DNA from: Campylobacterales bacterium
GTDB taxonomy: Bacteria; Campylobacterota; Campylobacteria; Campylobacterales; SZUA-545
Assembly (NCBI GenBank): GCA_050297855.1
Contig: JBNKTC010000009.1
Location: 9,221-73,220 of the forward strand
Reading direction: 5' to 3'
DNA length: 64,000 bases
The notes under the pieces were generated by a model that had not been told where the DNA came from, searched no databases, and worked only from the letters and a program-made list of their open reading frames with translations. Shown one piece after another: positions 7,821 to 53,152 of this stretch. A program made the translations under genes and the position numbers. Position 1 is the first letter of the stretch. Every line of letters begins with the position of its first letter.

Positions 7821-8504
7821 GTGATGATACTTGGTCAGTCCTACCTGTTTTGGACCTTTTTTACCCTTCTGGGCCTTCTTTTTTACTTTTTTCCCGAAAC
7901 CGACATCTGGTTCAGTTCGCTCTTTTTTAAAGAGGGAGAGTTTTACCTGCGCAACGATCCGCTGGTCATGTTTGTCTACGATGTCACCCATCCGCTCGTC
8001 GCCCTCTTCTTCCTGGGGGTGCTGAGTGCCCTTATCTATACGCTCATAACCAAAAAGACACTCTTCTCCCTAAAAAAGCAGGCCCTGACCTTTATGTTGA
8101 TCTCCGTGATCATGGCCCCGGGCGTTGTGGTCAATCTGACCCTCAAGGATAATGTCGACCGTGCCCGCCCCAAACACGTGACGCAGTTCGGCGGGGATAG
8201 GCAGTTTACCCCCGCCTTTGTCGTCAGCGACCAGTGTGAAAAGAACTGCTCCTTTGTCTGCGGACATGCGGCGGCGGGTTTCAGCTTTATCGCCCTGGCA
8301 CTGGTATTTAGTGGGAAAGTGCGGCGGCGGATCTTTATCGCCTCGGTGACGGCGGGTTTCCTCATCGGCCTTGTACGGGTGATCCAAGGGGGTCACTTCC
8401 TCAGTGACGTCTTCTTCTCGTTCTTTTTTACCTACCTGACGATCCGCCTGCTCTATTATCTCATCATGGAAAAACTGACGACTGCCTACGAAAAGGTCTA
8501 TTAA
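7821..8504 (+). CDS. PAP2-family (type 2 phosphatidic acid/lipid) phosphatase, membrane protein
   Basis: Multi-TM protein with the three PAP2 motifs KDNVDRARP, SFVCGHAA and VRVIQGGHFLSDV. Confidence 0.85.
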   Translation: MMILGQSYLFWTFFTLLGLLFYFFPETDIWFSSLFFKEGEFYLRNDPLVMFVYDVTHPLVALFFLGVLSALIYTLITKKTLFSLKKQALTFMLISVIMAPGVVVNLTLKDNVDRARPKHVTQFGGDRQFTPAFVVSDQCEKNCSFVCGHAAAGFSFIALALVFSGKVRRRIFIASVTAGFLIGLVRVIQGGHFLSDVFFSFFFTYLTIRLLYYLIMEKLTTAYEKVY

Positions 8505-9349
8505 AAAGGTTCGGGGCGGTTATACTCGACTGCGGTGATCCGGACATCGAAATACTCAAAGTCTCCCGATTCGAGGTTCCATACTGCCTTGCCTTTGACG
8601 GGGACCTTGATCCCCCCGAACTCACCGTATTCGCTGATGGGGGTAGACCAATGCTCCACGACAAATTTTCCCTCCACTTCGCGGTGACGTTCGGAGACGA
8701 CATTGACGACACGCCCCTCTTTATCAAAAAGGAACTGTGCGGCGACACTGATCCCCCCATAGCTGAGCGTCGCCTGGGCACTGTCCTCATCCACCGGTTC
8801 CCAGAGGATGTATTCGCTTAGTGCCGCGCTGGGAAACCAGATGATCTCATCCAGGTAACGCAGCAGGGTTCCCCGGTCGATCTCCTCGCTGTAGACATCG
8901 GCTACGGTAAAGAGCGAGAGCAGCCTGATGAGCATATTCCCTGTACGTCCCTCCAGGCGGTCCCTGGCACTGATGCTAAAAAGCGACCCCGCCTGCATAT
9001 CGGCAGCCCAGATAAATCCCGGTATATGGGTCGTATAGTACTCTTCGGCTTCAAAGGGGAGCCACTCCTGCTGCGGGGTCTGCCGAAACTTCCCCTCCTG
9101 CTTGATACGCACTGCCAGTGCTTTCGGTTTGCCGATCACACCGCTGAACGCGAGCCAGCGCTGTACCGGTTCGGGAAGCTGGATCACCTCCTCCTCGCTG
9201 ACGATATCGGCATGCATGCCCGCCACCTCCTGGAACATGGCACGGACCTCCATGTTCACCTGTTTGTTAAAACTGTAATGGCCGTAGAGAAGGACCGAGA
9301 CGAGGAAAAGGGCGATAATCGAAAGGGAGACAAGGAAAAATTTCAGCAT
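8501..9349 (-). CDS. Membrane-anchored hypothetical protein (282 aa)
   Basis: N-terminal TM helix (FFLVSLSIIALFLVSVLLY) followed by a globular domain. No family assigned by eye. Its stop shares TTAA with the PAP2 gene stop. Confidence 0.6.
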   Translation of the reverse strand: MLKFFLVSLSIIALFLVSVLLYGHYSFNKQVNMEVRAMFQEVAGMHADIVSEEEVIQLPEPVQRWLAFSGVIGKPKALAVRIKQEGKFRQTPQQEWLPFEAEEYYTTHIPGFIWAADMQAGSLFSISARDRLEGRTGNMLIRLLSLFTVADVYSEEIDRGTLLRYLDEIIWFPSAALSEYILWEPVDEDSAQATLSYGGISVAAQFLFDKEGRVVNVVSERHREVEGKFVVEHWSTPISEYGEFGGIKVPVKGKAVWNLESGDFEYFDVRITAVEYNRPEPF

Positions 9350-9383
9350 AAGAGCTCCTTGGATGTGAGAGGAGTGGGGCCGG

Positions 9384-10766
9384 TTACAGCCCCATTTTAT
9401 TCGGATTGAGGATGTTATTGGGGTCGAACGCTTTTTTAAGTGTTCGAAAGAGGTTCATCTCCTCCGGGGAAAAGGCGATGTCCATAAAGGGGGCCTTGGA
9501 GAGACCGATACCGTGCTCACCGCTGAGTGTGCCTTCCAGCTCGACAGCCGCTTCGAAGATCGCATGGATCGCCTTTTCGGCATTGAGGTATCGGACCGGG
9601 TCATTCTTGTCGGTCATGACATTGACGTGGACATTTCCGTCCCCGGTATGACCGAAACACGGGATCTGGTGGTCGTACTCTTTGCCGATCGCTTCAATAC
9701 GGCGCAACAGTTCAGGAAGCTTGCTTCGCGGAACGGTGATATCTTCGTTCAGTTTGGTCGGTCCGTACGCTTTAAGGCTTGGACTGGCATTACGTCTGGC
9801 AAACCAGATGTCCGCAGCCTCTTCGGGTGTCGCCGCCTTTTTAAAACCGACGGAACCGTTTGCTTTGAAGACCTTTTCCAATGCACCCAACTGGAACTCC
9901 AGATCTGCTTCCGTATTGCCGTCTACATCGGCGATCAGGATCGCCCCCGCATCCAGTGGCAGGCCTTTTTTATAGATCTTCTCCACCGACTGGATCGTCA
10001 GGTTGTCCAAAAACTCCATCGCCACGGGGCTGACACCCTCGGCAAAGGTCTTGAACGTCGCATTCATCGCCGCGTCCACGCTGGGGAAGATCCCCATGAC
10101 GGTACGCTGCATCTTAGGCTTAGGGATCAGCTTGAGCGTGATCTCCGTCAGGACCGCCAGGGTCCCTTCGCTGGCGATCAGGATCCCGGCGATGTTATAT
10201 CCGGCGACGTCCTTGATCGTCTTTTTCCCGGCACGGATGACGTCGCCGTTGGGCAGGACAGCACGAAGGGCCATGACGTAATCCTTCGTGATCCCGTATT
10301 TGGCTGCCCGCATCCCACCGGCATTCTCGCTGACGTTTCCGCCGAGTGTGGAGTAGTCCTGGCTGGCAGGATCCGGCGGATAGAAGAGCCCCTGGGCTTC
10401 GACCGCTTTTTGGAACTCCATGTTAACGACACCCGGCTGGACACGGGCCACGAGGTTTTCCATGTCGATCTCCAGGATCTTGTTCATATGTTTTTCAAAG
10501 GCCAGGATGATCCCGCCGTTGGCGGGGAGCGCCCCGCCGGTAAAACCGCTGCCCGCACCGCGCGGGACGATGATGATTTGATGCTCGTTGCAGTATTTTA
10601 GAATCTCGCTTACGTCTTTCTCGTCACGGGGGAAGACGACCGCATCGGGCTCGTACTCGTTGCGGGTCGCATCGTATGAGTAGGCCAGCGTATGGGCCTT
10701 GTCAGAGGAGACGTTCTCCTCGCCTATCATCGCCTTCAGGTTTGCCACATGTTTCAGATCAAGCAT
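9384..10766 (-). CDS. glcD: FAD-linked oxidase, glycolate oxidase subunit GlcD-like
   Basis: 460 aa. FAD-binding PCMH-type domain (IIVPRGAGSGFTGGALP) and a C-terminal FAD-oxidase domain (GEHGIGLSK). Confidence 0.85.
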   Translation of the reverse strand: MLDLKHVANLKAMIGEENVSSDKAHTLAYSYDATRNEYEPDAVVFPRDEKDVSEILKYCNEHQIIIVPRGAGSGFTGGALPANGGIILAFEKHMNKILEIDMENLVARVQPGVVNMEFQKAVEAQGLFYPPDPASQDYSTLGGNVSENAGGMRAAKYGITKDYVMALRAVLPNGDVIRAGKKTIKDVAGYNIAGILIASEGTLAVLTEITLKLIPKPKMQRTVMGIFPSVDAAMNATFKTFAEGVSPVAMEFLDNLTIQSVEKIYKKGLPLDAGAILIADVDGNTEADLEFQLGALEKVFKANGSVGFKKAATPEEAADIWFARRNASPSLKAYGPTKLNEDITVPRSKLPELLRRIEAIGKEYDHQIPCFGHTGDGNVHVNVMTDKNDPVRYLNAEKAIHAIFEAAVELEGTLSGEHGIGLSKAPFMDIAFSPEEMNLFRTLKKAFDPNNILNPNKMGL

Positions 10767-43619: not shown

Positions 43620-44732
43620 TTAATCGATGAGCTGATACTCATCCCGTAAGATAGCGATCACTTCCGCTTTCGGGTTATCGGAGAGTACGATCTTCTCACC
43701 GGTGATCTTCTCTGCGATGTCCGTATAGGTCTTGGAGACCTGCATCAACACCTCGGTCGGCAGCGCATTGTCACGTGCCAGCGCTTCGCGCTCATCCATA
43801 CGGGATTTATTGAGCAGGATATCGGGGTCCGGGAAGTGGTTCAGCAGCAGCTGGCGGAACCCCTCTTTGGAATTCTCCACGACTTTGCCCTTTCGGTACT
43901 GTTCACCGTCCCAGATACGGGAACTATCCGGCGTGCCCACTTCGTCCATGTAGATCAGCTTGTCGTTGCCCTCCGTGTCTTTCACGTAGCCGAACTCGAA
44001 CTTGGTATCGACAAAGATCTGGTCAAGCTTTTCAAGCTCTTTGGAGATCACCTCAAAGCCCTCTGTTAAAAGCTTCTCATACAGGGCAATATCATCACGC
44101 GATTTAAAATTAAACGCTTCGTAGTTGTCTTCGATGTTTTTACGCGTGATATTGACGTCATCCACCTCCGGCACGCCCGGGATGCCTTTGAGTACGCCCT
44201 TGGTAGAGGGAGTCTGGAGCAGTTCCGGGAGTCTGGAGTCTTTTGTCAGGCCTTCAGGGATCTTGATACCGCAGAACTCGCGTTCGCCTTTTTCGTATGC
44301 ACGCCACATGGAACCGGTGATATACTGGCGGCAGATCGCTTCGATCATCACGGGCTGGGCTTTTTGTACGATCCAGACAAACGGATGGGGGATATCGAGG
44401 ATATGGCTGTCGGCAAGCCCTTTTTCCTTAAAGAGTCTGAACCAGTGGTTCGAGATGGCGTTCAGCGCCGCCCCTTTGCCGGGAACGCCCTGCATATTCC
44501 CCTCGCCGTGCCAGATACAGTCAAACGCGGAGATACGGTCACTGATCACCATGATCGCCAACGGCGTGTCGGCAGGCACGTCATACCCTTTCTCTTTGAT
44601 CAGCCGCTTGCTGTCGGCTTCTGTCAGCCAATAGACCGAGCGCACCTTCCCGCTGTGCACCGGAGAATCCGTACGGATCGGAAGGTCGTTATTTACTGCC
44701 AATACTTTGTCAGCTAAGTTCATTGTTATCAC
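43620..44732 (-). CDS. purC: Phosphoribosylaminoimidazole-succinocarboxamide synthase (long form)
   Basis: 370 aa. [26 protein letters not shown]-like [20 protein letters not shown]. Confidence 0.92.
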
Positions 44733-44876: not shown

Positions 44877-45179
44877 TTAGTCTTTTCGGTAATTTTCCAA
44901 AAGTTGCTTGCCGTGTACAATGGCAACAATCAATATTTCATCTTCACCCACAGCATAGATCATACGATAGCTGTAGACAAAAATCTCACGAATCTCTATG
45001 CGCATCACCTCCGGGACCACCCGTCCGGACTCGGGAAAAGTGATGAGCATTTCAGCTTTTTCGAAAAACGTGGTGACTACTTACTTCGCATAAACAGGAG
45101 AGTCTTTTTCAATATATCGGGCAATAGCCTCGATATCTTCAAGAGCCTCCGTGGACCAATTTAGCTTTCGCTCAGCCAC
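44877..45179 (-). pseudogene. ParE/RelE-family toxin gene interrupted by an in-frame TAA (codon 33)
   Basis: Own translation from GTG 45179: MAERKLNWSTEALEDIEAIARYIEKDSPVYAK*VVTTFFEKAEMLITFPESGRVVPEVMRIEIREIFVYSYRMIYAVGEDEILIVAIVHGKQLLENYRKD*. Stop at 45081-45083. Typical ParE pattern (W...A..D...I..YI, FP..GR.V.E, YR..Y......I.I..I.H). The start overlaps the antitoxin 3-prime end. Confidence 0.8.
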
Positions 45180-45352
45180 TTATGCATCTTCTCTTTGGCC
45201 TGATCGTGGGAGAGGGCCTTCTCCTCTTCAGCCCGTTTGAGCCCTTTTTGGACTTTTTCGATTACGTATAGGTGATACTGAATGTCTTCATAGGTGCAGT
45301 CGTCCGGAAGTGTTTCCAGCATTTGACGTACTTCATCTTTTACGGCAGTCAT
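45161..45352 (-). CDS. Putative antitoxin partner of the ParE-like pseudogene
   Basis: 63 aa, ...LETLPDDCTYEDIQYHLYVIEKVQKGLKRAEEEKALSHDQAKEKMHKWL. It is the upstream, overlapping small gene in the usual antitoxin-toxin order. Confidence 0.65.
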   Translation of the reverse strand: MTAVKDEVRQMLETLPDDCTYEDIQYHLYVIEKVQKGLKRAEEEKALSHDQAKEKMHKWLSES

Positions 45353-45724: not shown

Positions 45725-46444
45725 TCAGTAGATCCCCGGGAAGAGACGGAAGCGTACACGCGCGGCATACTCGCTGTAACCCGGTAGCTCGTCTTGAAGT
45801 GTCCTGTCCTCCAGTGTGGTGCGGATCACCGCGATGACCAGCGCCAGCGCGGCTGGGATCAGGGTCCAGAGCGTGTTAAGCGCCATGATGATACCCGCAA
45901 CGGCCAGCAGGTTCCCCGCATAGCCGGGATGACGTACGATGCGGTACGGGCCGCTGTCGCAGACCGAATGCCCCCGGTCTGTCTGGATACGCACCGTGGT
46001 GGAGAAAAAGCGGTTCTCGACCAGCGCCCACGTGGCAAAGGCGTACCCGACCGCAATAAGAACAAGCCCCAGAATATTAACCCATCCCGCAAACAGCGGC
46101 GTCCACCCATAACGGTGATCCAGCCCCGCAACGATCAGAAGGGGGAACGTAAGGCTGACCGCCATCAAGGGCGCAAGCACCTTGTCCCACGACTTCGCAC
46201 CCTTAGCCTTTTCCGTACTAATCCGCTCAACCATAATCCCCGGATGCCGCCTCTCGGCCAAAACACGCCCCCCGACCCCGGCACAAAACAGCAGCACCCC
46301 ATAAACCCAAGCCTGCCACCAGCCAAAATCCCCCGCACAGAGGAAAAGAACCAGCGGGATAATGAGATAGAGGAGGACCTCACCCAGCCACAAACGAGGG
46401 CTTGGGGATTGGTTGGTGTTTGGATCGGTGGCTTGGGATGTCAT
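45725..46444 (-). CDS. Isoprenylcysteine carboxyl methyltransferase (ICMT/PEMT) family membrane methyltransferase
   Basis: 239 aa, multi-TM. ...SGPYRIVRHPGYAGNLL...E...L matches the ICMT family signature. GGAGG RBS. Confidence 0.75.
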   Translation of the reverse strand: MTSQATDPNTNQSPSPRLWLGEVLLYLIIPLVLFLCAGDFGWWQAWVYGVLLFCAGVGGRVLAERRHPGIMVERISTEKAKGAKSWDKVLAPLMAVSLTFPLLIVAGLDHRYGWTPLFAGWVNILGLVLIAVGYAFATWALVENRFFSTTVRIQTDRGHSVCDSGPYRIVRHPGYAGNLLAVAGIIMALNTLWTLIPAALALVIAVIRTTLEDRTLQDELPGYSEYAARVRFRLFPGIY

Positions 46445-46510: not shown

Positions 46511-46756
46511 CTACTTATACGAATCTCTCCTATGCATTACCCGGTAGACTTTTAACGTATCCCCCTCAATGTCAAAAAGGATTCGGTAGTTTCCTACCCG
46601 GTAACGGTATCTGGGAATATGGTTCGTAAGGCGTTTAATGTTGGAGATATTCGGAAAGTCCTGGAGGGCTTCGATTTTTTCAAACAGCCTGGATGCTTCT
46701 TTTTTGTCAAGTTTCGAGAGGTCTTTGAACGCTTTGTCATCAATGACGACAGTCAT
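46511..46756 (-). CDS. RelE/StbE-family type II toxin
   Basis: 81 aa. ...FKDLSKLDKKEASRLFEKIEAL...IKRLTNHIPRYRYRVGNYRILFDIEGDTLKVYRVMHRRDSY. ATGA overlap with the upstream antitoxin. Confidence 0.85.
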   Translation of the reverse strand: MTVVIDDKAFKDLSKLDKKEASRLFEKIEALQDFPNISNIKRLTNHIPRYRYRVGNYRILFDIEGDTLKVYRVMHRRDSYK

Positions 46757-46965
46757 TCAAGACCCAGTTTTTCTTTTGCCTGTGCGAGAGTATGGGAAGG
46801 ATTGTTTTCTTTCTTCACTTCTTCAATCAAATGATAATCCGGGTCGTTCGGGTCAAGCAGCTCGATATCTTTTTCGATACTGATCCCCTCTTTCAGACCG
46901 GCAACGAACTCTTTGAGTTTGGTCATAACAGTTTCGTTTTCCACATTCAAAACAACCGTATGCAT
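46753..46965 (-). CDS. Putative antitoxin of the RelE-like toxin
   Basis: 70 aa acidic protein. Its 4-nt overlap with the toxin start is the usual TA operon layout. Confidence 0.7.
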   Translation of the reverse strand: MHTVVLNVENETVMTKLKEFVAGLKEGISIEKDIELLDPNDPDYHLIEEVKKENNPSHTLAQAKEKLGLE

Positions 46966-47111
46966 CTGAAAGCCCCTTTCTTTTGTTTTTTGAATATTAT
47001 ATCACATCATTTAGAGAAGGAAAATCATCCCTTACTTATACTTATTTCATGACCCTATTTCACTTTTGTAAACTGTAGCGCCATGTTCTCTTTAATCTAT
47101 TATATAAGTCT

Positions 47112-47143
47112 ATGAAAAAAGTAGACTGACTTCTTTATTTACA
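47112..47143. repeat. AT-rich roughly 32-bp element, copy 3 (ATGAAAAAAGTAGACTGACTTCTTTATTTACA), more diverged
   Basis: Abuts the stop of the 82-aa ORF (47144). It aligns to copies 1 and 2 best in inverted orientation (GATGTAAATAAAGAAGTCAGTCTACTTTTTTC). The element is a partial A/T palindrome, so orientation is ambiguous. Confidence 0.45.
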
Positions 47144-47392
47144 TCATGAATCAGAAATCCCATGTAACTCAAGACGGTCTATATACCGGATCAAAGCCCC
47201 CATTTTCTCCTCGATCAAAACCAAGTGATCATGAAACGTCGGAACATACCGAACCTCACGATCATTCTCTGAAATATATGCCATCGCATAATCAAGTGAC
47301 TGGAGCAAGCTTTGGATATTGCAAGCCTGAATCTGGAGCGATGAAATACTGTAATCGGACGGTTTTTGGTCTTTTTTTTCGTTTTCACCCAT
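47144..47392 (-). CDS. Hypothetical small protein (82 aa)
   Basis: Track ORF in AT-rich DNA, divergent from the HTH gene. No family recognised. Confidence 0.45.
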   Translation of the reverse strand: MGENEKKDQKPSDYSISSLQIQACNIQSLLQSLDYAMAYISENDREVRYVPTFHDHLVLIEEKMGALIRYIDRLELHGISDS

Positions 47393-47503
47393 ATTGCATC
47401 CTTAAAGAAAATAAAACTGAAAATGTTTATTTTCATTATTTTAAACATTATTGATGTGTTATAACATTTCAAACTTAAATCTAAGATGTATCGATGGTTA
47501 AAA

Positions 47504-47524
47504 TCTCACATTATTTATGTGAGA
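47504..47524. promoter_or_regulatory. Perfect 8-bp inverted repeat (TCTCACAT-tattt-ATGTGAGA), candidate operator
   Basis: It sits immediately upstream of the RBS (AAGAGG) of the HTH gene. A second perfect inverted repeat, AATGTTTA-12 nt-TAAACATT, lies at 47422-47449. Confidence 0.4.
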
Positions 47525-47535
47525 AAGAGGCTGTG

Positions 47536-47754
47536 ATGACTTACAAAGAATTTGAGGATGCGCTAAAATTAGCTGGGATCGATAAAAAAGCATTTTCCAG
47601 AATGACAGGTCTTAACTACACTTCAATCACCAATTGGAGTCAAGAGGGAAAAACGATTCCATTCTGGGTAAAGTCATACCTAGAATACTTCACGAAATCC
47701 AAGCTTTATGACGAGATGGCTTCAAAAATGGCAGAGGTTCAGAAACGGTCGTAA
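47536..47754 (+). CDS. Small XRE/Cro-like helix-turn-helix protein
   Basis: Track ORF from 47494. I prefer MTYKEF at 47536 (AAGAGG RBS). ...IDKKAFSRMTGLNYTSITNWSQEGK... is a typical HTH_3-like turn. Confidence 0.6.
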   Translation: MTYKEFEDALKLAGIDKKAFSRMTGLNYTSITNWSQEGKTIPFWVKSYLEYFTKSKLYDEMASKMAEVQKRS

Positions 47755-47764
47755 TAAAGAGGGT

Positions 47765-47786
47765 AAAAGGGACTCGTCCCGTTTTT
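47765..47786. terminator. Bidirectional hairpin between the HTH gene and the three-gene operon
   Basis: AAAAGGGAC-tc-GTCCCGTTTTT. GC stem flanked by an A-run and a T-run, between convergent stops (47754 and 47795). Confidence 0.6.
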
Positions 47787-47794
47787 CTGAAGTG

Positions 47795-49078
47795 TTATGC
47801 ACCAGGATTAATATTTGACATATATTCAAAACCATCAGCACTTAGGACAAAACTAAAATTTTCCATACCAAAAAAATCATATATGTCCGGTTTACTATAT
47901 TCTTGGAGTAATCCTTCCCTAAACATCGATTCAAATTGTACAACAAGAGCTGAATATGAAAGATCATCAAAAAGATTTTGAGTAGTAAATTCCAAGCTAT
48001 TTTCACCAGTTTGAATAAGTTTTAAAGACAAAATCCATAAAAGTAATTCTTCAAATTTTGCATCTTTTCTATCATCTGATAAAAAATCGATTGATTGCAT
48101 CAAAATTATGTCAAAAACATCTGCAGGCATGTTATGCGGCAAAAATCTTTCTAATCCGAGTTCAACTTTAAAAATATGTTTATGAAAGGTATTTGTAACT
48201 TCTTCTTCATTTCTGAAAACAGATACATCTTCTGCTTTCAAAAAGTGCCAATCTTTTCGAATACCATCTACGTAACTAGGATATGCGTCACATATATCAT
48301 TAAAAAGGGAAATTAAGCGCTGGTAATGCTCTTCTGATGTCCAATGCTGACCAATAAGCTTTTGATTGGGAAACCTAAATGATATATCCTGATAATTATC
48401 AGATGAGAGAATTGAGTTACAATAATTTGCAAATGAATAATTACCTTTTTCATCTTTTGACTCCAATTTCCCATATGTCATTAATCCAATGTTTTCATGC
48501 TGATTTTTAACACGTAATTTGTATTCAAGTCCATCTCTTGTTTCTCTTCGATTTATTCCAACGATATTTTGCTTTAATGCGTCTTTATAAATTTGTGAAA
48601 AATTTTTTAGATTTTTTGAATTCGAACTTTTTATTTCAATAAGAGGAAGTGTTTTTCTTATCTTTTTAGTAATGTATTGTTGTCTATTTTTATTTATCCT
48701 ACTACTTTTGAACACATCCACTGGTATAGTCTCTGGTCCTTCAAAGAAAAAGCCTTTCGAATTTAACTGACTAGTAATATATTCATTTATATCATCGAAG
48801 CAACCCATTGGATACCATTCAGTTTTTCCATTAGTCTCTTGTTTGAGAGGTATAGTAAAATTGTAATGTGAAAATGTACTCTTGATTTTATCTTCTAGTT
48901 TTTTAGCATCTTTTCGACTATCCATCCTAATCGCTTGAGATTTGCTTCCGAAAGGTCCAAAGTTCTTTAAATCTTTTTGAACTCTTCCATTTTTTACAGC
49001 AAACCTTGATGATATACCCACTTTAAAGCATAATTCATCTTTTCGCACCAAAAGATATAGAAAATGTTTACCTAACAT
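47795..49078 (-). CDS. T5orf172 (MUG113) / GIY-YIG-superfamily domain protein with about 300-aa unassigned C-terminal region (operon gene 3)
   Basis: Track ORF to 49099. I prefer the ATG at 49078 (AAGGTGA RBS 5 nt upstream). N-terminus FLYLLVRKDELCFKVGISS...RVQKDL...AKKLEDKIKSTFSHYNF...NGKTEWY matches my memory of the T5orf172 pattern (Y.l....KIGit...R...L...E..lH..f......g.tEWF). Confidence 0.7.
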   Translation of the reverse strand: MLGKHFLYLLVRKDELCFKVGISSRFAVKNGRVQKDLKNFGPFGSKSQAIRMDSRKDAKKLEDKIKSTFSHYNFTIPLKQETNGKTEWYPMGCFDDINEYITSQLNSKGFFFEGPETIPVDVFKSSRINKNRQQYITKKIRKTLPLIEIKSSNSKNLKNFSQIYKDALKQNIVGINRRETRDGLEYKLRVKNQHENIGLMTYGKLESKDEKGNYSFANYCNSILSSDNYQDISFRFPNQKLIGQHWTSEEHYQRLISLFNDICDAYPSYVDGIRKDWHFLKAEDVSVFRNEEEVTNTFHKHIFKVELGLERFLPHNMPADVFDIILMQSIDFLSDDRKDAKFEELLLWILSLKLIQTGENSLEFTTQNLFDDLSYSALVVQFESMFREGLLQEYSKPDIYDFFGMENFSFVLSADGFEYMSNINPGA

Positions 49079-49154
49079 TGTTTCACCTTTTAAAAGCATA
49101 AGAAAAAAGACCTCTTTATTCCATGTATTTCAATGCTGAATCTTTAAAATATCA

Positions 49155-50843
49155 CTATTCTTCAACACCCTCGTCTTTCGGTTGTATTGGGATAGGAGTA
49201 CTACGAATAATTCGAGATGATGAACTTGGACTAATACCATGCAAGGCATACTCTTTTAGATTTGAAAAATCTGAATAATCCAACTTTCCATCATATCCCC
49301 ACATACCTGATTCATATTCGATATGAGGTCGCTTTTCTCCATCTTTTTCTAACTCTTCTATCCAAAAACATGGATTAAGGTTTGCTTTTGGTCTGATTGC
49401 ACATTTTACTCCTCGTAATCTCGAATAGGCTTGTTCAGCATACGCCTTCATATAGAAGTTCCCTTCTGAATCGATATCTTGTATAAGCCAAGTTAATATG
49501 TGCCCCATAAACTCTTCCGAATGGCTTTCTACCGGGATTAAACAACGGGACCAAAAACAACCTATATTTAAATGTTTTGCCACTCTACCAAGTTGAACAA
49601 TAGATTCAAAAACAGCGACAATCGTCTGCATAGATTTCAACTTGGCTGCATTACAACCAAGGAACGAAAGGCTTTCCATACACCGATAAGCAAAATGTGA
49701 ATTCCCGCTATAAAAGGCCGATACACCTAATTTTTTTATGTCATGTGCATAGACAGAAATATTATATTTATCCAATTCCGCTATACCATCTGATGAATTC
49801 TCTACTTCTAATCGATAGATTCCTAGCTCTATTACATGCTGAAGGGTATTAAGTATTTTTATAGGCTCAATAACGCTCTTCGATTCTAGCATTATTGTAC
49901 CAATCCATACTGCATCCGATGCAACAGATCTTGTCATATCAGAACATGGATGTGCCAAGGCTTCCTTTTTTGTCAAGAATGTACAAAGCTCACTCGAAAG
50001 AGACTGAAAAAACATGCCACTTTTATCTAAATCAGCTATATGAGTAATGATTGCGTGCAAACGTTTTTGTGCAATTTTTTTCATTCCACTATAAATCTCA
50101 TATGTCTCTTCATTTGCTGATTTATATGAATAGGTCGCAAGAACTAATTTCAGAATTGCATTTAGTGACTGTCGAAATACTGGATAATCATTATTCTCAA
50201 TCGATAATTTTGTTATAACTGCAATGGAATCCCATAGATCATTAGGCTCAACCCCCCATACACTTGGTTCAAAATCATATGCATGGGTAGGTATTTGAAA
50301 TTTATCTCTATTTTTTAAATACTCTTGATGATCATCAACCTCTTTTTTTAATTCTCTTGAGATCATTCCTAAATATCTACCTATAGCTTTGTCACTCAAA
50401 CGTTTTTCAATAAACTGACTAGGACTTAAATATTTAGAAGTGAGTTCCGCATTATCTACTGATGATAAGACTAAAACTGGGAGTATCCACAATGCTATTT
50501 TTCCAAAGTATTCTGGAGCGACCAAAAAGGAAACCAGTGGCAAGAATGGCAGAATCAATAAAAGAATTATGTTGAACCATTGCCTTTGAGTAACTTCATT
50601 ATAAATTGCTTTATATTTTGAAAGTTGGTACCCAAAAAAAGTAAAGTTAATTGAGAAAACAGCTATCGTAAAATTTATACCCAATAACCAAGGAGTGATT
50701 TTTTCTAGGTTCTGATTTAATGAACCAATTACTATCAACAGTTCAAGAATCAGTAAAACAATTAATCTCAAAGACAAACTCCAATCGTCTACAATATTTT
50801 GTTTTCTAGATACAGCATAACGAGACAGCATATTCTTTTCCAT
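49155..50843 (-). CDS. Membrane protein: four N-terminal TM helices + about 420-aa unassigned soluble domain (operon gene 2)
   Basis: 562 aa. Hydrophobic segments LRLIVLLILELLIVIGSL, WLLGINFTIAVFSINFTFFGY, WFNIILLLILPFLPLVSFLV and FGKIALWILPVLVLSSV. The rest has no motif I recognise. Confidence 0.7.
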   Translation of the reverse strand: MEKNMLSRYAVSRKQNIVDDWSLSLRLIVLLILELLIVIGSLNQNLEKITPWLLGINFTIAVFSINFTFFGYQLSKYKAIYNEVTQRQWFNIILLLILPFLPLVSFLVAPEYFGKIALWILPVLVLSSVDNAELTSKYLSPSQFIEKRLSDKAIGRYLGMISRELKKEVDDHQEYLKNRDKFQIPTHAYDFEPSVWGVEPNDLWDSIAVITKLSIENNDYPVFRQSLNAILKLVLATYSYKSANEETYEIYSGMKKIAQKRLHAIITHIADLDKSGMFFQSLSSELCTFLTKKEALAHPCSDMTRSVASDAVWIGTIMLESKSVIEPIKILNTLQHVIELGIYRLEVENSSDGIAELDKYNISVYAHDIKKLGVSAFYSGNSHFAYRCMESLSFLGCNAAKLKSMQTIVAVFESIVQLGRVAKHLNIGCFWSRCLIPVESHSEEFMGHILTWLIQDIDSEGNFYMKAYAEQAYSRLRGVKCAIRPKANLNPCFWIEELEKDGEKRPHIEYESGMWGYDGKLDYSDFSNLKEYALHGISPSSSSRIIRSTPIPIQPKDEGVEE

Positions 50844-50855
50844 TTCTCTAAATAA

Positions 50856-51770
50856 TTATTTTTTCCAATATTGTTTCTCCAACGTTTCGTACACAAAATC
50901 TGATAAGAAACTATGAAGGAAAGGTTGTTTTTTTTGCCAATATTCAGAATAAAGGTCACAAACTACCCTTTGACAAACTTTTAAGACCTCCAACAATTTC
51001 TTATCAAGCATAATCAATAATTCTGTCATATGGTACTCATACATAAAATAGTCCCCATATGCAGCATCACTACCTATATCATTATCTTGAACAAACTGTT
51101 TAGGTGTTGGAATATCCCATGCTATGTCTAGAATGAAACATATAGAAAAAATCGAACTTAACAAAAAATTAAAATCAAAGAGAACTTCGTCATCTTCTAC
51201 AAGCATATGAAAATCTCTACGTATATTGTTATAGTAAAAATTTGAAAAAGACTTGTAAAGATTAGGTAATGATATAAATTTCTCTTCCATCTTATTAAGG
51301 TTTTCTGTCCACCTATAAGCATTTAAAAATACTTCTACATTGAACTCATCAGAATTATAAAACTCGTAATAAAAATTATTATCACTTGAATATCTATTGT
51401 AATTTTGTCGAACATAATCAGCAACAGATTTGAAATAGATTTTTTTCTTTGTCTCATCTATGAGAAGTAAAAATGCTGGGATGTTTGAATTCAACCAATA
51501 ATTAGTTGTATTTTTATTTACTTTATATAATCTATATTTTCCAGAATTATCAAAGTTAACATTGGCAGTAGATTTTAGTTGAAATGATGTGAATATTCCA
51601 GTAACTTGGTTTTTGGAGTTTACTAACTCTATCAGAGCGTCTATTCCATAATCTCTTTCTGACAGTTGTCGAACGAGCCAATGATTTGGAATATTATTCT
51701 CAAATACTTTGTATGAAACTGTTTCTTTGATGTGATTTATTGCTCTTATTGGAAAATTTTGTTCAAACAC
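50856..51770 (-). CDS. DUF4365-like (PD-(D/E)xK restriction-endonuclease-fold) protein with about 180-aa unassigned C-terminal region (operon gene 1)
   Basis: 304 aa, GTG start (AGGA 9 nt upstream). N-terminus ...HIKETVSYKVFENNIPNHWLVRQLSERDYGIDALIELV...GIFTSFQLKS... fits my memory of the DUF4365 pattern (E..s......gw.......DyGiD..ie.........vQvK). Confidence 0.65.
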   Translation of the reverse strand: MFEQNFPIRAINHIKETVSYKVFENNIPNHWLVRQLSERDYGIDALIELVNSKNQVTGIFTSFQLKSTANVNFDNSGKYRLYKVNKNTTNYWLNSNIPAFLLLIDETKKKIYFKSVADYVRQNYNRYSSDNNFYYEFYNSDEFNVEVFLNAYRWTENLNKMEEKFISLPNLYKSFSNFYYNNIRRDFHMLVEDDEVLFDFNFLLSSIFSICFILDIAWDIPTPKQFVQDNDIGSDAAYGDYFMYEYHMTELLIMLDKKLLEVLKVCQRVVCDLYSEYWQKKQPFLHSFLSDFVYETLEKQYWKK

Positions 51771-51985
51771 TATAAAATCCTGTACTGTTTTAATAAAGTA
51801 AAAGTATCACTAAGACTAACTTAAAATATTTATGTATTTATCATTATTAAACTATAAGAAGGTGATATAAATTCAAGGAAGAAACAGGGAGAACGACGCA
51901 AAAGTTGCGGTGCTATTTGTTATTTTTTATTTAGTGTGCGTAGATTTGGAGGGTTGGGGGAAGGAGCTTACTGTAGTAAGTGACT

Positions 51986-52012
51986 GAGCACAACATCCGA
52001 AGATGCGTGCTC
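51986..52012 (-). terminator. Hairpin downstream of ilvC
   Basis: Minus strand: GAGCACGCATC-ttcg-GATGTTGTGCTC (TTCG loop, one bulge), 16 nt after the ilvC stop. The T-run precedes rather than follows it, so the assignment is tentative. Confidence 0.35.
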
Positions 52013-52027
52013 AAAATAAAAAAGAGA

Positions 52028-53152
<1,125 letters not shown>

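Follow-up and report, generated by a model that had tools for sequence, protein, structure and literature searches.

Three minus-strand genes between purC and ilvC

The window analysed here is a stretch of 64,000 nucleotides (nt) from a Campylobacterales bacterium (contig JBNKTC010000009.1 of assembly GCA_050297855.1), and window positions are used throughout. At 47795-51770, between purC and ilvC, it carries three minus-strand genes, here called A, B and C (Table 1), which an earlier reading of the letters, the sequence-only reading, had proposed to be a single uncharacterised anti-phage defence system. We found that the defence-island flavour of this block is supported and that B is, by its sequence, a new protein family. 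The proposal of a novel three-gene system found no support, because the three families are not co-localised across approximately 31 non-redundant B loci, five A contexts and two C contexts.

Much of what had been seen directly at the locus was confirmed. The open reading frames (ORFs) of A, B and C are co-directional and lie close together, and both flanking genes were identified by Pfam, which places the block between purC and ilvC. Its composition is foreign and AT-rich, with GC of 0.28-0.38 over 47000-52000 against 0.49-0.61 in the flanking genes, a difference far beyond chance. The view that the block is horizontally acquired, uncharacterised and similar to a defence island is upheld. On the other hand, the spacing of the genes had to be revised. 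The longest ORFs leave gaps of 12 nt (A-B) and 55 nt (B-C), whereas the likely starts give 84 and 76 nt. As the start of the B homologues coincides with a TTG at 50771 that is preceded by GGAG 7 nt upstream and yields a B of 538 amino acids (aa), the A-B gap is more likely 84 nt than 12 nt; the N-terminal extension that produces the shorter gap is absent in all B homologues. Likewise, C homologues start at the eighth codon of C, an ATG at 49078, so that C probably has 427 aa.

Promoter and terminator scans stayed at background level and revealed no convincing internal terminator or promoter between A, B and C, the promoter scan being uninformative in such AT-rich DNA (26 sites against 23.8 expected). 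The bidirectional hairpin that had been thought to close the unit folds no better than shuffled sequence (-5 kcal/mol, z-score -0.55, with 63 of 200 shuffles folding equally well), and this part of the earlier description was dropped.

Table 1. Features of the purC-ilvC interval, in window positions
Feature	Positions	Strand	Basis and remarks
purC	43620-44732		flank; Pfam
Second ParE, C-terminal half only	44877-45050	-	Pfam ParE_toxin E 1.9e-7, profile positions 39-88 of 89
63-aa ORF upstream of the ParE remnant	unit 44877-45352	-	ORF list
ICMT/PEMT-type membrane methyltransferase	45725-46444		
ParE toxin	46511-46756	-	Pfam ParE_toxin E 8.5e-11
70-aa ORF, presumed antitoxin, 4-nt overlap with ParE	unit 46511-46965	-	ORF list; position upstream of ParE
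Small ORF, 86 aa, convergent with C	47494-47754	+	helix-turn-helix-like by eye only
Weak hairpin between C and the 86-aa ORF	47765-47786		4 G-C pairs, A and T runs on the sides
C	47795-49099	-	434-aa ORF; T5orf172 domain ~8-110, then ~320 aa family-specific
B	49155-50843	-	562-aa ORF; 4 N-terminal transmembrane helices, all-alpha solenoid, Cys/His-rich C-terminal beta domain
A	50856-51770	-	304 aa, GTG start; nuclease domain ~1-140, helical-bundle C-terminal domain ~145-304
AT-rich non-coding stretch between ilvC and A, presumed A promoter region	51771-52027	-	GC ~0.30
ilvC	52028-53107		flank; Pfam

Linkage of the three gene families

Co-localisation across unrelated genomes served as our working criterion for a multi-gene system. 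We collected 48 B loci (9 from one-genome-per-species GTDB contigs, 24 from metagenomes and the rest from an exact-protein look-up), approximately 31 of them non-redundant, along with five contexts for A and two for C, and ran family profile hidden Markov models for A, B and C on every six-frame ORF of 59 loci. Neither A nor C was found in any other B locus, and B was found in no A or C locus. A tblastn search with A and C against the 9 genome and 24 metagenome B loci likewise gave no match besides this organism's own copy. The sole co-occurrence of A, B and C elsewhere (locus L021) is this same sequence from a read archive. A-B-C, A-B and B-C linkage is absent from every other genome or metagenome locus examined, and A, B and C do not co-localise across unrelated genomes.

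As a rule, B stands on its own at these loci, between housekeeping genes and foreign in composition. It is found alone between ubiD and hemY (L011), as a gene of GC 0.43 without any low-GC neighbour in a genome of GC 0.68 (L009), and between FMN_bind_2 and Y1_Tnp genes, where it adjoins an IS200-type transposase (L015-L020). A recurrent small partner for B was considered and rejected: low-GC neighbours of 220-290 aa are present at many loci, do not cluster together and are mostly without a family match. An RNxxxH motif is shared by three of them by eye only, and they were therefore not taken as a partner family.

B belongs to a new family of four-helix membrane proteins

Homologues of B form 105 sequence clusters, every one named 'hypothetical', with lengths of 504-581 aa and identities of 45-75% across distant bacteria. 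No significant family match to B was found in Pfam, NCBIfam, PADLOC or PHROGs (the PHROGs matches were at chance level, E >= 0.079), and assignments to Acyl_transf_3 (16.6 bits against a cutoff of 31) or Amuc_1101 (14.5 against 650) were rejected as noise. Four hydrophobic N-terminal helices are seen both by hydropathy and in the AlphaFold model, which was built with 81 homologues (predicted local distance difference test, pLDDT, 89.4; predicted template-modelling score, pTM, 0.86). Together with the lack of a family match, this bears out the earlier description of B as four transmembrane (TM) helices followed by approximately 420 unassigned residues. Searching the model against PDB and BFVD with Foldseek returned only designed or generic helical repeats (TM-score <= 0.36), and a profile search of PDB sequences with B gave no match. 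A literature search found no description of a single chain that combines four TM helices with an alpha-solenoid of approximately 400 aa and a Cys/His-rich beta domain, and searches by accession of B and A homologues, and by domain name for B, found no paper.

From hydropathy and charge distribution, both termini of B are predicted to lie in the cytoplasm. The most conserved stretch of the protein is the TM2 region (residues 46-80, ITPWLLGINFTIAxFSINFTFFGYQLSKYK), with a mean identity of 0.83 and a conserved Asn/Ser/Thr/Gln face that includes N57, N66 and Q73. Since conservation is highest there, the membrane part may be more than an anchor. The C-terminal part ranks second (0.75) and contains an invariant or nearly invariant C-x4-C-x6-H-x6-H arrangement (C429, C434, H441 and H448). 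Of its residues, C429 and H441 are invariant, while conservation reaches at least 90% for C388, C397, C434, H448 and C481, and a metal site in this part is plausible. In its general plan B resembles RexB, Kiwa KwaA, the TM effectors of CBASS and Pycsar, and Brigantia of the V. cholerae integron, being likewise a multi-pass inner-membrane protein that resides in defence islands, is self-contained and is carried by a phage as a moron, yet none of them resembles it in sequence or fold.

Defence genes near B and A homologues

Tabulating the neighbours of B homologues showed recurrent adjacency to known defence genes: by raw count, such a gene lies near B, mostly within two genes, at no fewer than 12 of the 31 non-redundant loci. 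B lies near Gabija in L034, L035, L037 and L039 (GajA E 2e-110, GajB 1e-55), at 160-285 nt from a short-GajB Gabija pair and in at least three independently arisen arrangements, with the orders GajA-GajB-B and B-GajA-GajB. Their independent origin follows from the differing gene order, from the divergence of GajA in L034 (only 31% identical to the others) and from B identities of 58-66%. Gabija was rejected as the true partner of B, given its presence at only 4 of 31 loci, the varying gene order and the discordant divergence. The spacers between B and gajA at L035:2434-2665 and L039:6472-6754, which appear largely alike by eye, contain a palindrome that is long but imperfect (GCAAGATTGCAAGT...ACTTGCTATCTTGC) together with a GGGGGAG/CCCCC element, and may represent a repetitive extragenic palindromic (REP)- or attC-like element.

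Other B homologues have AbiH (6.7e-45) and PDC-S06 (3e-260) close by (L044), or PDC-S31/DUF2971 (L003, L033 and L038), or MNT/HepT and SIR2 (L010). Further neighbours include an LmuB-like ATPase (L046), a Ppl-like protein (L045), an OLD-family ATPase-TOPRIM protein (L031) and a PDC-S41/AbiO/Nhi-like protein (L037).

The contexts of the A homologues all differ from one another, several of them with neighbours of this kind. One lies between an insertion sequence and Hachiman, with Cap15 and CBASS E2/JAB genes near (L023), and another has unknown genes on both sides (L024). In Pseudoalteromonas sp. JC28 (L058:4243-7011) the homologue is directly downstream of a 574-aa OLD-family ATPase-TOPRIM protein, with an annotated gap of 33 nt; a pair of OLD and DUF4365 proteins could exist, seen in this one context only. 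In Halomonas sp. DP5N14-9 (L022:5124-6918) a LEM-3-type GIY-YIG protein of 262 aa is encoded 89 nt upstream, with ParE nearby. This pairing echoes the DUF4365 and GIY-YIG-superfamily combination of the window, and a profile search showed that its GIY-YIG protein is not homologous to C. We consider the evidence for a defence association good for B and fair for A.

Signs of mobility

Clusters of A and of B at 90% identity span genera, which points to recent horizontal transfer; among the clusters P0059, P0043 and P0112, the combinations are Vibrio/Photobacterium, Shewanella/Vibrio/Moritella and Halomonas/Vibrio/Photobacterium. In Marinomonas fungiae (L008:6580-9571) a frameshifted B (ORFs 7956-8876 and 8834-9571) adjoins a divergent 322-aa ORF resembling an integron integrase, with a series of small ORFs, all on one strand, coming next. 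In some genomes B may travel as an integron cassette. On one viral contig (IMG/VR UViG_3300009374_000868, L060:6001-7545), a B homologue of 45% identity is present as an oppositely oriented single gene among phage genes, in the manner of a moron, and its neighbours encode a Mu F-like protein, a cement protein and a 1177-aa Dam-type methyltransferase fusion.

Apart from this one IMG/VR contig, B had no match in 72,556 plasmid records, in 50,697 phage records or in E. coli. The 50,697 phage records contained no match to C (the plasmid records were not searched with C), and the 72,556 plasmid records contained only two domain-level matches to A (the phage records were not searched with A). Of the two C homologues with context, one is alone beside a resolvase region (L050) and the other is inside a region resembling an integrative and conjugative element (ICE), with ParA, RPA, RadC and HTH_3 genes (L053). 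The latter region also encodes a protein with the size and layout of B (L053:11140-12756; 538 aa, TM helices at the N-terminus, the body helical), which was rejected as a cryptic B on an hhalign probability of 0.1.

A is a DUF4365 protein with a DREN-type fold

The expectation that A begins with a DUF4365-type PD-(D/E)xK module proved correct. Residues 18-126 match Pfam DUF4365 (PF14280) at E 2.9e-16 (60.2 bits against a cutoff of 24.3), and PF14280 is present in all 12 full-length relatives, which share 37-58% identity; no other Pfam family was found in A at E <= 1. In the AlphaFold model (pLDDT 84), the N-terminal 140 residues or so were superposed by Foldseek on the DREN domain of SPARDA (9qcc_A, E 2e-7, 145 columns, root-mean-square deviation 3.6). 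A profile search agreed (9qbq_A, 8e-7), with the motifs GiD..E..iQLKS..YW..SN aligning with solved DREN domains. Within the family the nuclease residues E38, D40, D44, E48, Q64 and K66 are invariant, as are R185, W218, E245, H247, D256, W278 and K281 of the C-terminal domain. No structural or sequence relative of this helical bundle of approximately 160 residues was found by Foldseek or profile search.

In SPARDA, isolated DREN is monomeric and inactive, and it becomes a collateral nuclease only on tetramerisation (PMC12205087). A shares the fold and the GxD..E..QxK and YW..SN motifs of the SPARDA DREN-APAZ proteins (PDB 9qcc, 9jsz, 9jt2 and 9qbq), and by analogy it probably needs oligomerisation for activity as well. 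Nevertheless, an APAZ domain is missing from A, whose alignment to the 390-416-aa DREN-APAZ chains covers no more than the first 145 residues or so, and its gene has ilvC and B as neighbours and no adjacent short Argonaute (MID-PIWI) gene. A parallel in organisation, compared by description, is Divona, a single-gene DUF4365 cassette of the Vibrio cholerae superintegron shown by experiment to protect V. cholerae against phage (bioRxiv 10.1101/2024.07.02.601686). Both are single proteins with a DUF4365/Mrr-like nuclease domain at the N-terminus and a C-terminal domain that is not a nuclease; the C-terminal part of Divona is described as crr6-like (PF08847), whereas A lacks that Pfam match at E <= 1. 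Close relatives of the A homologues occur in Vibrio and Photobacterium, and a DNA search of E. coli genomes made for the comparison of gene A with Divona gave no match.

Searched against PADLOC-DB v2.0.0, which covers Kiwa, Zorya, Gabija, Septu, Lamassu and others, A gave domain-level matches only (Aga_REase-PNTD1-PNTD2 and PDC-M02A, residues 12-125), and neither B nor C had a family match at E <= 1. Searches of all three proteins against Pfam, NCBIfam and PHROGs likewise left no assignment beyond the DUF4365 domain of A and a borderline T5orf172 match of C. The locus is thus without a match to any named system, as had been suggested.

C is a T5orf172 protein with few relatives

C had been read as beginning with a T5orf172/GIY-YIG-like module, which holds for the family although C itself scores just under the cutoff for Pfam T5orf172 (PF10544; 18.9 bits against 20). 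Among 15 relatives, 12 match T5orf172 at E <= 0.01 (best 3.3e-10) and nine match the related MUG113. The motif residues are conserved too: G91, E94 and W95 are invariant, E69 is nearly so, and Y15, K26-x-G28 and R39 are present in all members that have the N-terminus. Based on these relatives and residues, we retain the assignment at the family level.

The family itself is very small. A word-indexed search of 5.8e9 proteins returned only C itself, and a full HMMER scan of 1.84e9 representatives returned 16, of which three span the full length, with identities of 27-31%. Odn of ICP1 and NixI of PLE consist of a domain of T5orf172/GIY-YIG type fused to a second domain. In C, too, the T5orf172 domain is joined to another domain, which presumably serves for targeting, and C has the motif set of the phage and satellite T5orf172 nucleases (homing endonucleases, Odn and NixI), namely Y15, K-x-G, R39, E69 and G-x-x-E-W-Y. 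It differs from them in that its C-terminal 320 aa or so have no relative outside the 16-member family, and in having no match among the phage records.

Flanking modules and the structure of the island

Two toxin-antitoxin modules had been noted within 3 kb of the three genes. Two ParE ORFs are indeed present, but one is truncated; as the Pfam model is matched at positions 39-88 of 89 only, the ORF at 44877-45050 is probably a decayed toxin gene. For the small ORF convergent with C, no Pfam match at E <= 0.01 was found. The methyltransferase gene in the middle of the low-GC island has host-like GC (0.52-0.61 in windows), which indicates that the island is a mosaic and not a single insertion. 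No tRNA and no Rfam family was found in the window, and no integrase or flanking repeat in the island and its flanks.

Interpretation of the locus

Taken together, the purC-ilvC hotspot is probably a small defence island in which separately acquired ParE modules stand beside three self-contained single-gene modules, and not one machine. Within this island B is, more tentatively, a candidate for a new system, anti-phage or exclusion, that is encoded by one self-contained gene. Its solenoid and Cys/His domain would sense infection, the polar TM2 face would act as the membrane effector, the fold appears unrelated to described defence proteins, and the gene would spread as a one-gene island, an integron-like cassette or a phage moron across Gammaproteobacteria, Campylobacterota and Myxococcota. 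B would be an inner-membrane protein whose cytoplasmic solenoid and Cys/His domain recognise a phage cue, whereupon the conserved polar face of TM2 may form or open a membrane lesion, leading to abortive infection or superinfection exclusion. B fits a sensor-coupled membrane effector because it combines a repeat domain of the protein-binding type with a constrained TM domain, resides in defence islands and occurs as a phage moron.

By analogy with SPARDA, A would be a DREN-type non-specific nuclease that is inactive as a monomer, and its helical C-terminal domain, acting as a sensor or assembly module, could drive oligomerisation upon infection and thereby turn the nuclease on. C may be a DNA nuclease or nickase of the GIY-YIG type, with the C-terminal part directing it to its target; what it does, in defence or in the maintenance of a mobile element, is the least certain of the three.

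We weighed this reading of independent modules against three others. An obligate anti-phage system with A, B and C as its three components would account for their common strand, close spacing, shared low GC and apparently single upstream AT-rich region, and it agrees with the lack of a matching named system. We hold it to be very improbable, as the families never co-occur elsewhere, each being found alone or with unrelated neighbours, and as B, after correction of its start, probably lies 84 nt from A and not 12 nt. A narrower version, in which A and B became functionally coupled recently and in this lineage only (for instance with B as sensor or anchor for A) and C is a bystander, draws on the two genes being the closest of the three (12 nt if the upstream ATG is used) and on the frequency of nuclease and membrane-protein pairs in defence systems. 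It too has very little probability in our estimate: the pair occurs once, no homologue has the N-terminal extension that gives the 12-nt gap, and each family persists elsewhere without the other. A role outside defence deserves more weight and is still unlikely. The block would then be decayed cargo of a mobile element (an ICE, an integron or a prophage remnant), with C as a homing or mobile-element nuclease, the 86-aa ORF as a regulator, A as a restriction-like or addiction nuclease and B serving, for example, in entry exclusion. The ICE-like and resolvase settings of the C homologues (L053 and L050) fit such an origin, as do the B copies beside an integron-integrase-like gene (L008) and in a phage contig (L060) and the ParE modules, which are addiction genes; in addition, T5orf172 proteins are typical of phage homing endonucleases (PMC10448857). 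However, the window yielded neither a tRNA nor a conjugation gene, the island with its flanks yielded no integrase and no flanking repeat, B is missing from the plasmid and phage records and C from the phage records, and the recurrent partners of B are defence systems rather than transfer genes.

Several points weigh against the reading as independent defence modules. The suggested defence role is guilt by association, the neighbours not being set against a genome-wide background, and some of the PADLOC matches among them, those to ATPases of the ABC/SMC type, are promiscuous and hold at the level of a domain only. At this locus the three genes run in one direction, lie just 12 or 84 nt (A-B) and 55 or 76 nt (B-C) apart and have no convincing terminator or promoter between them. 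Since they are stacked in this way, A, B and C could be co-transcribed here, and local functional coupling is possible as well. Moreover, the missing linkage says little about C, which is nearly an orphan, and the contexts are few (five for A, two for C). The mechanism suggested for B is drawn from topology and conservation only, and its modelled fold has no recognisable enzymatic or pore domain.

Implications for single-gene defence

If the reading as separate modules is right, the block offers three separate testable genes and should not be interpreted as one three-gene system, and tight, co-directional gene stacks of the same composition in hotspots can mimic operon-encoded systems. Single-gene candidates like these are common in defence islands. 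Among the three, B is the best candidate, as its family lies outside Pfam, NCBIfam and PADLOC, has no structural relative and is always compositionally foreign; if B is active against phage, the repertoire of single-gene defence would gain a new architecture, that of a sensor plus a membrane effector. For A, the proposed mechanism, if true, would provide an Argonaute-free switch for the DREN nuclease, whose understanding is so far limited to Argonaute filaments, and the question of how DREN is gated would become accessible in a protein of 304 aa.

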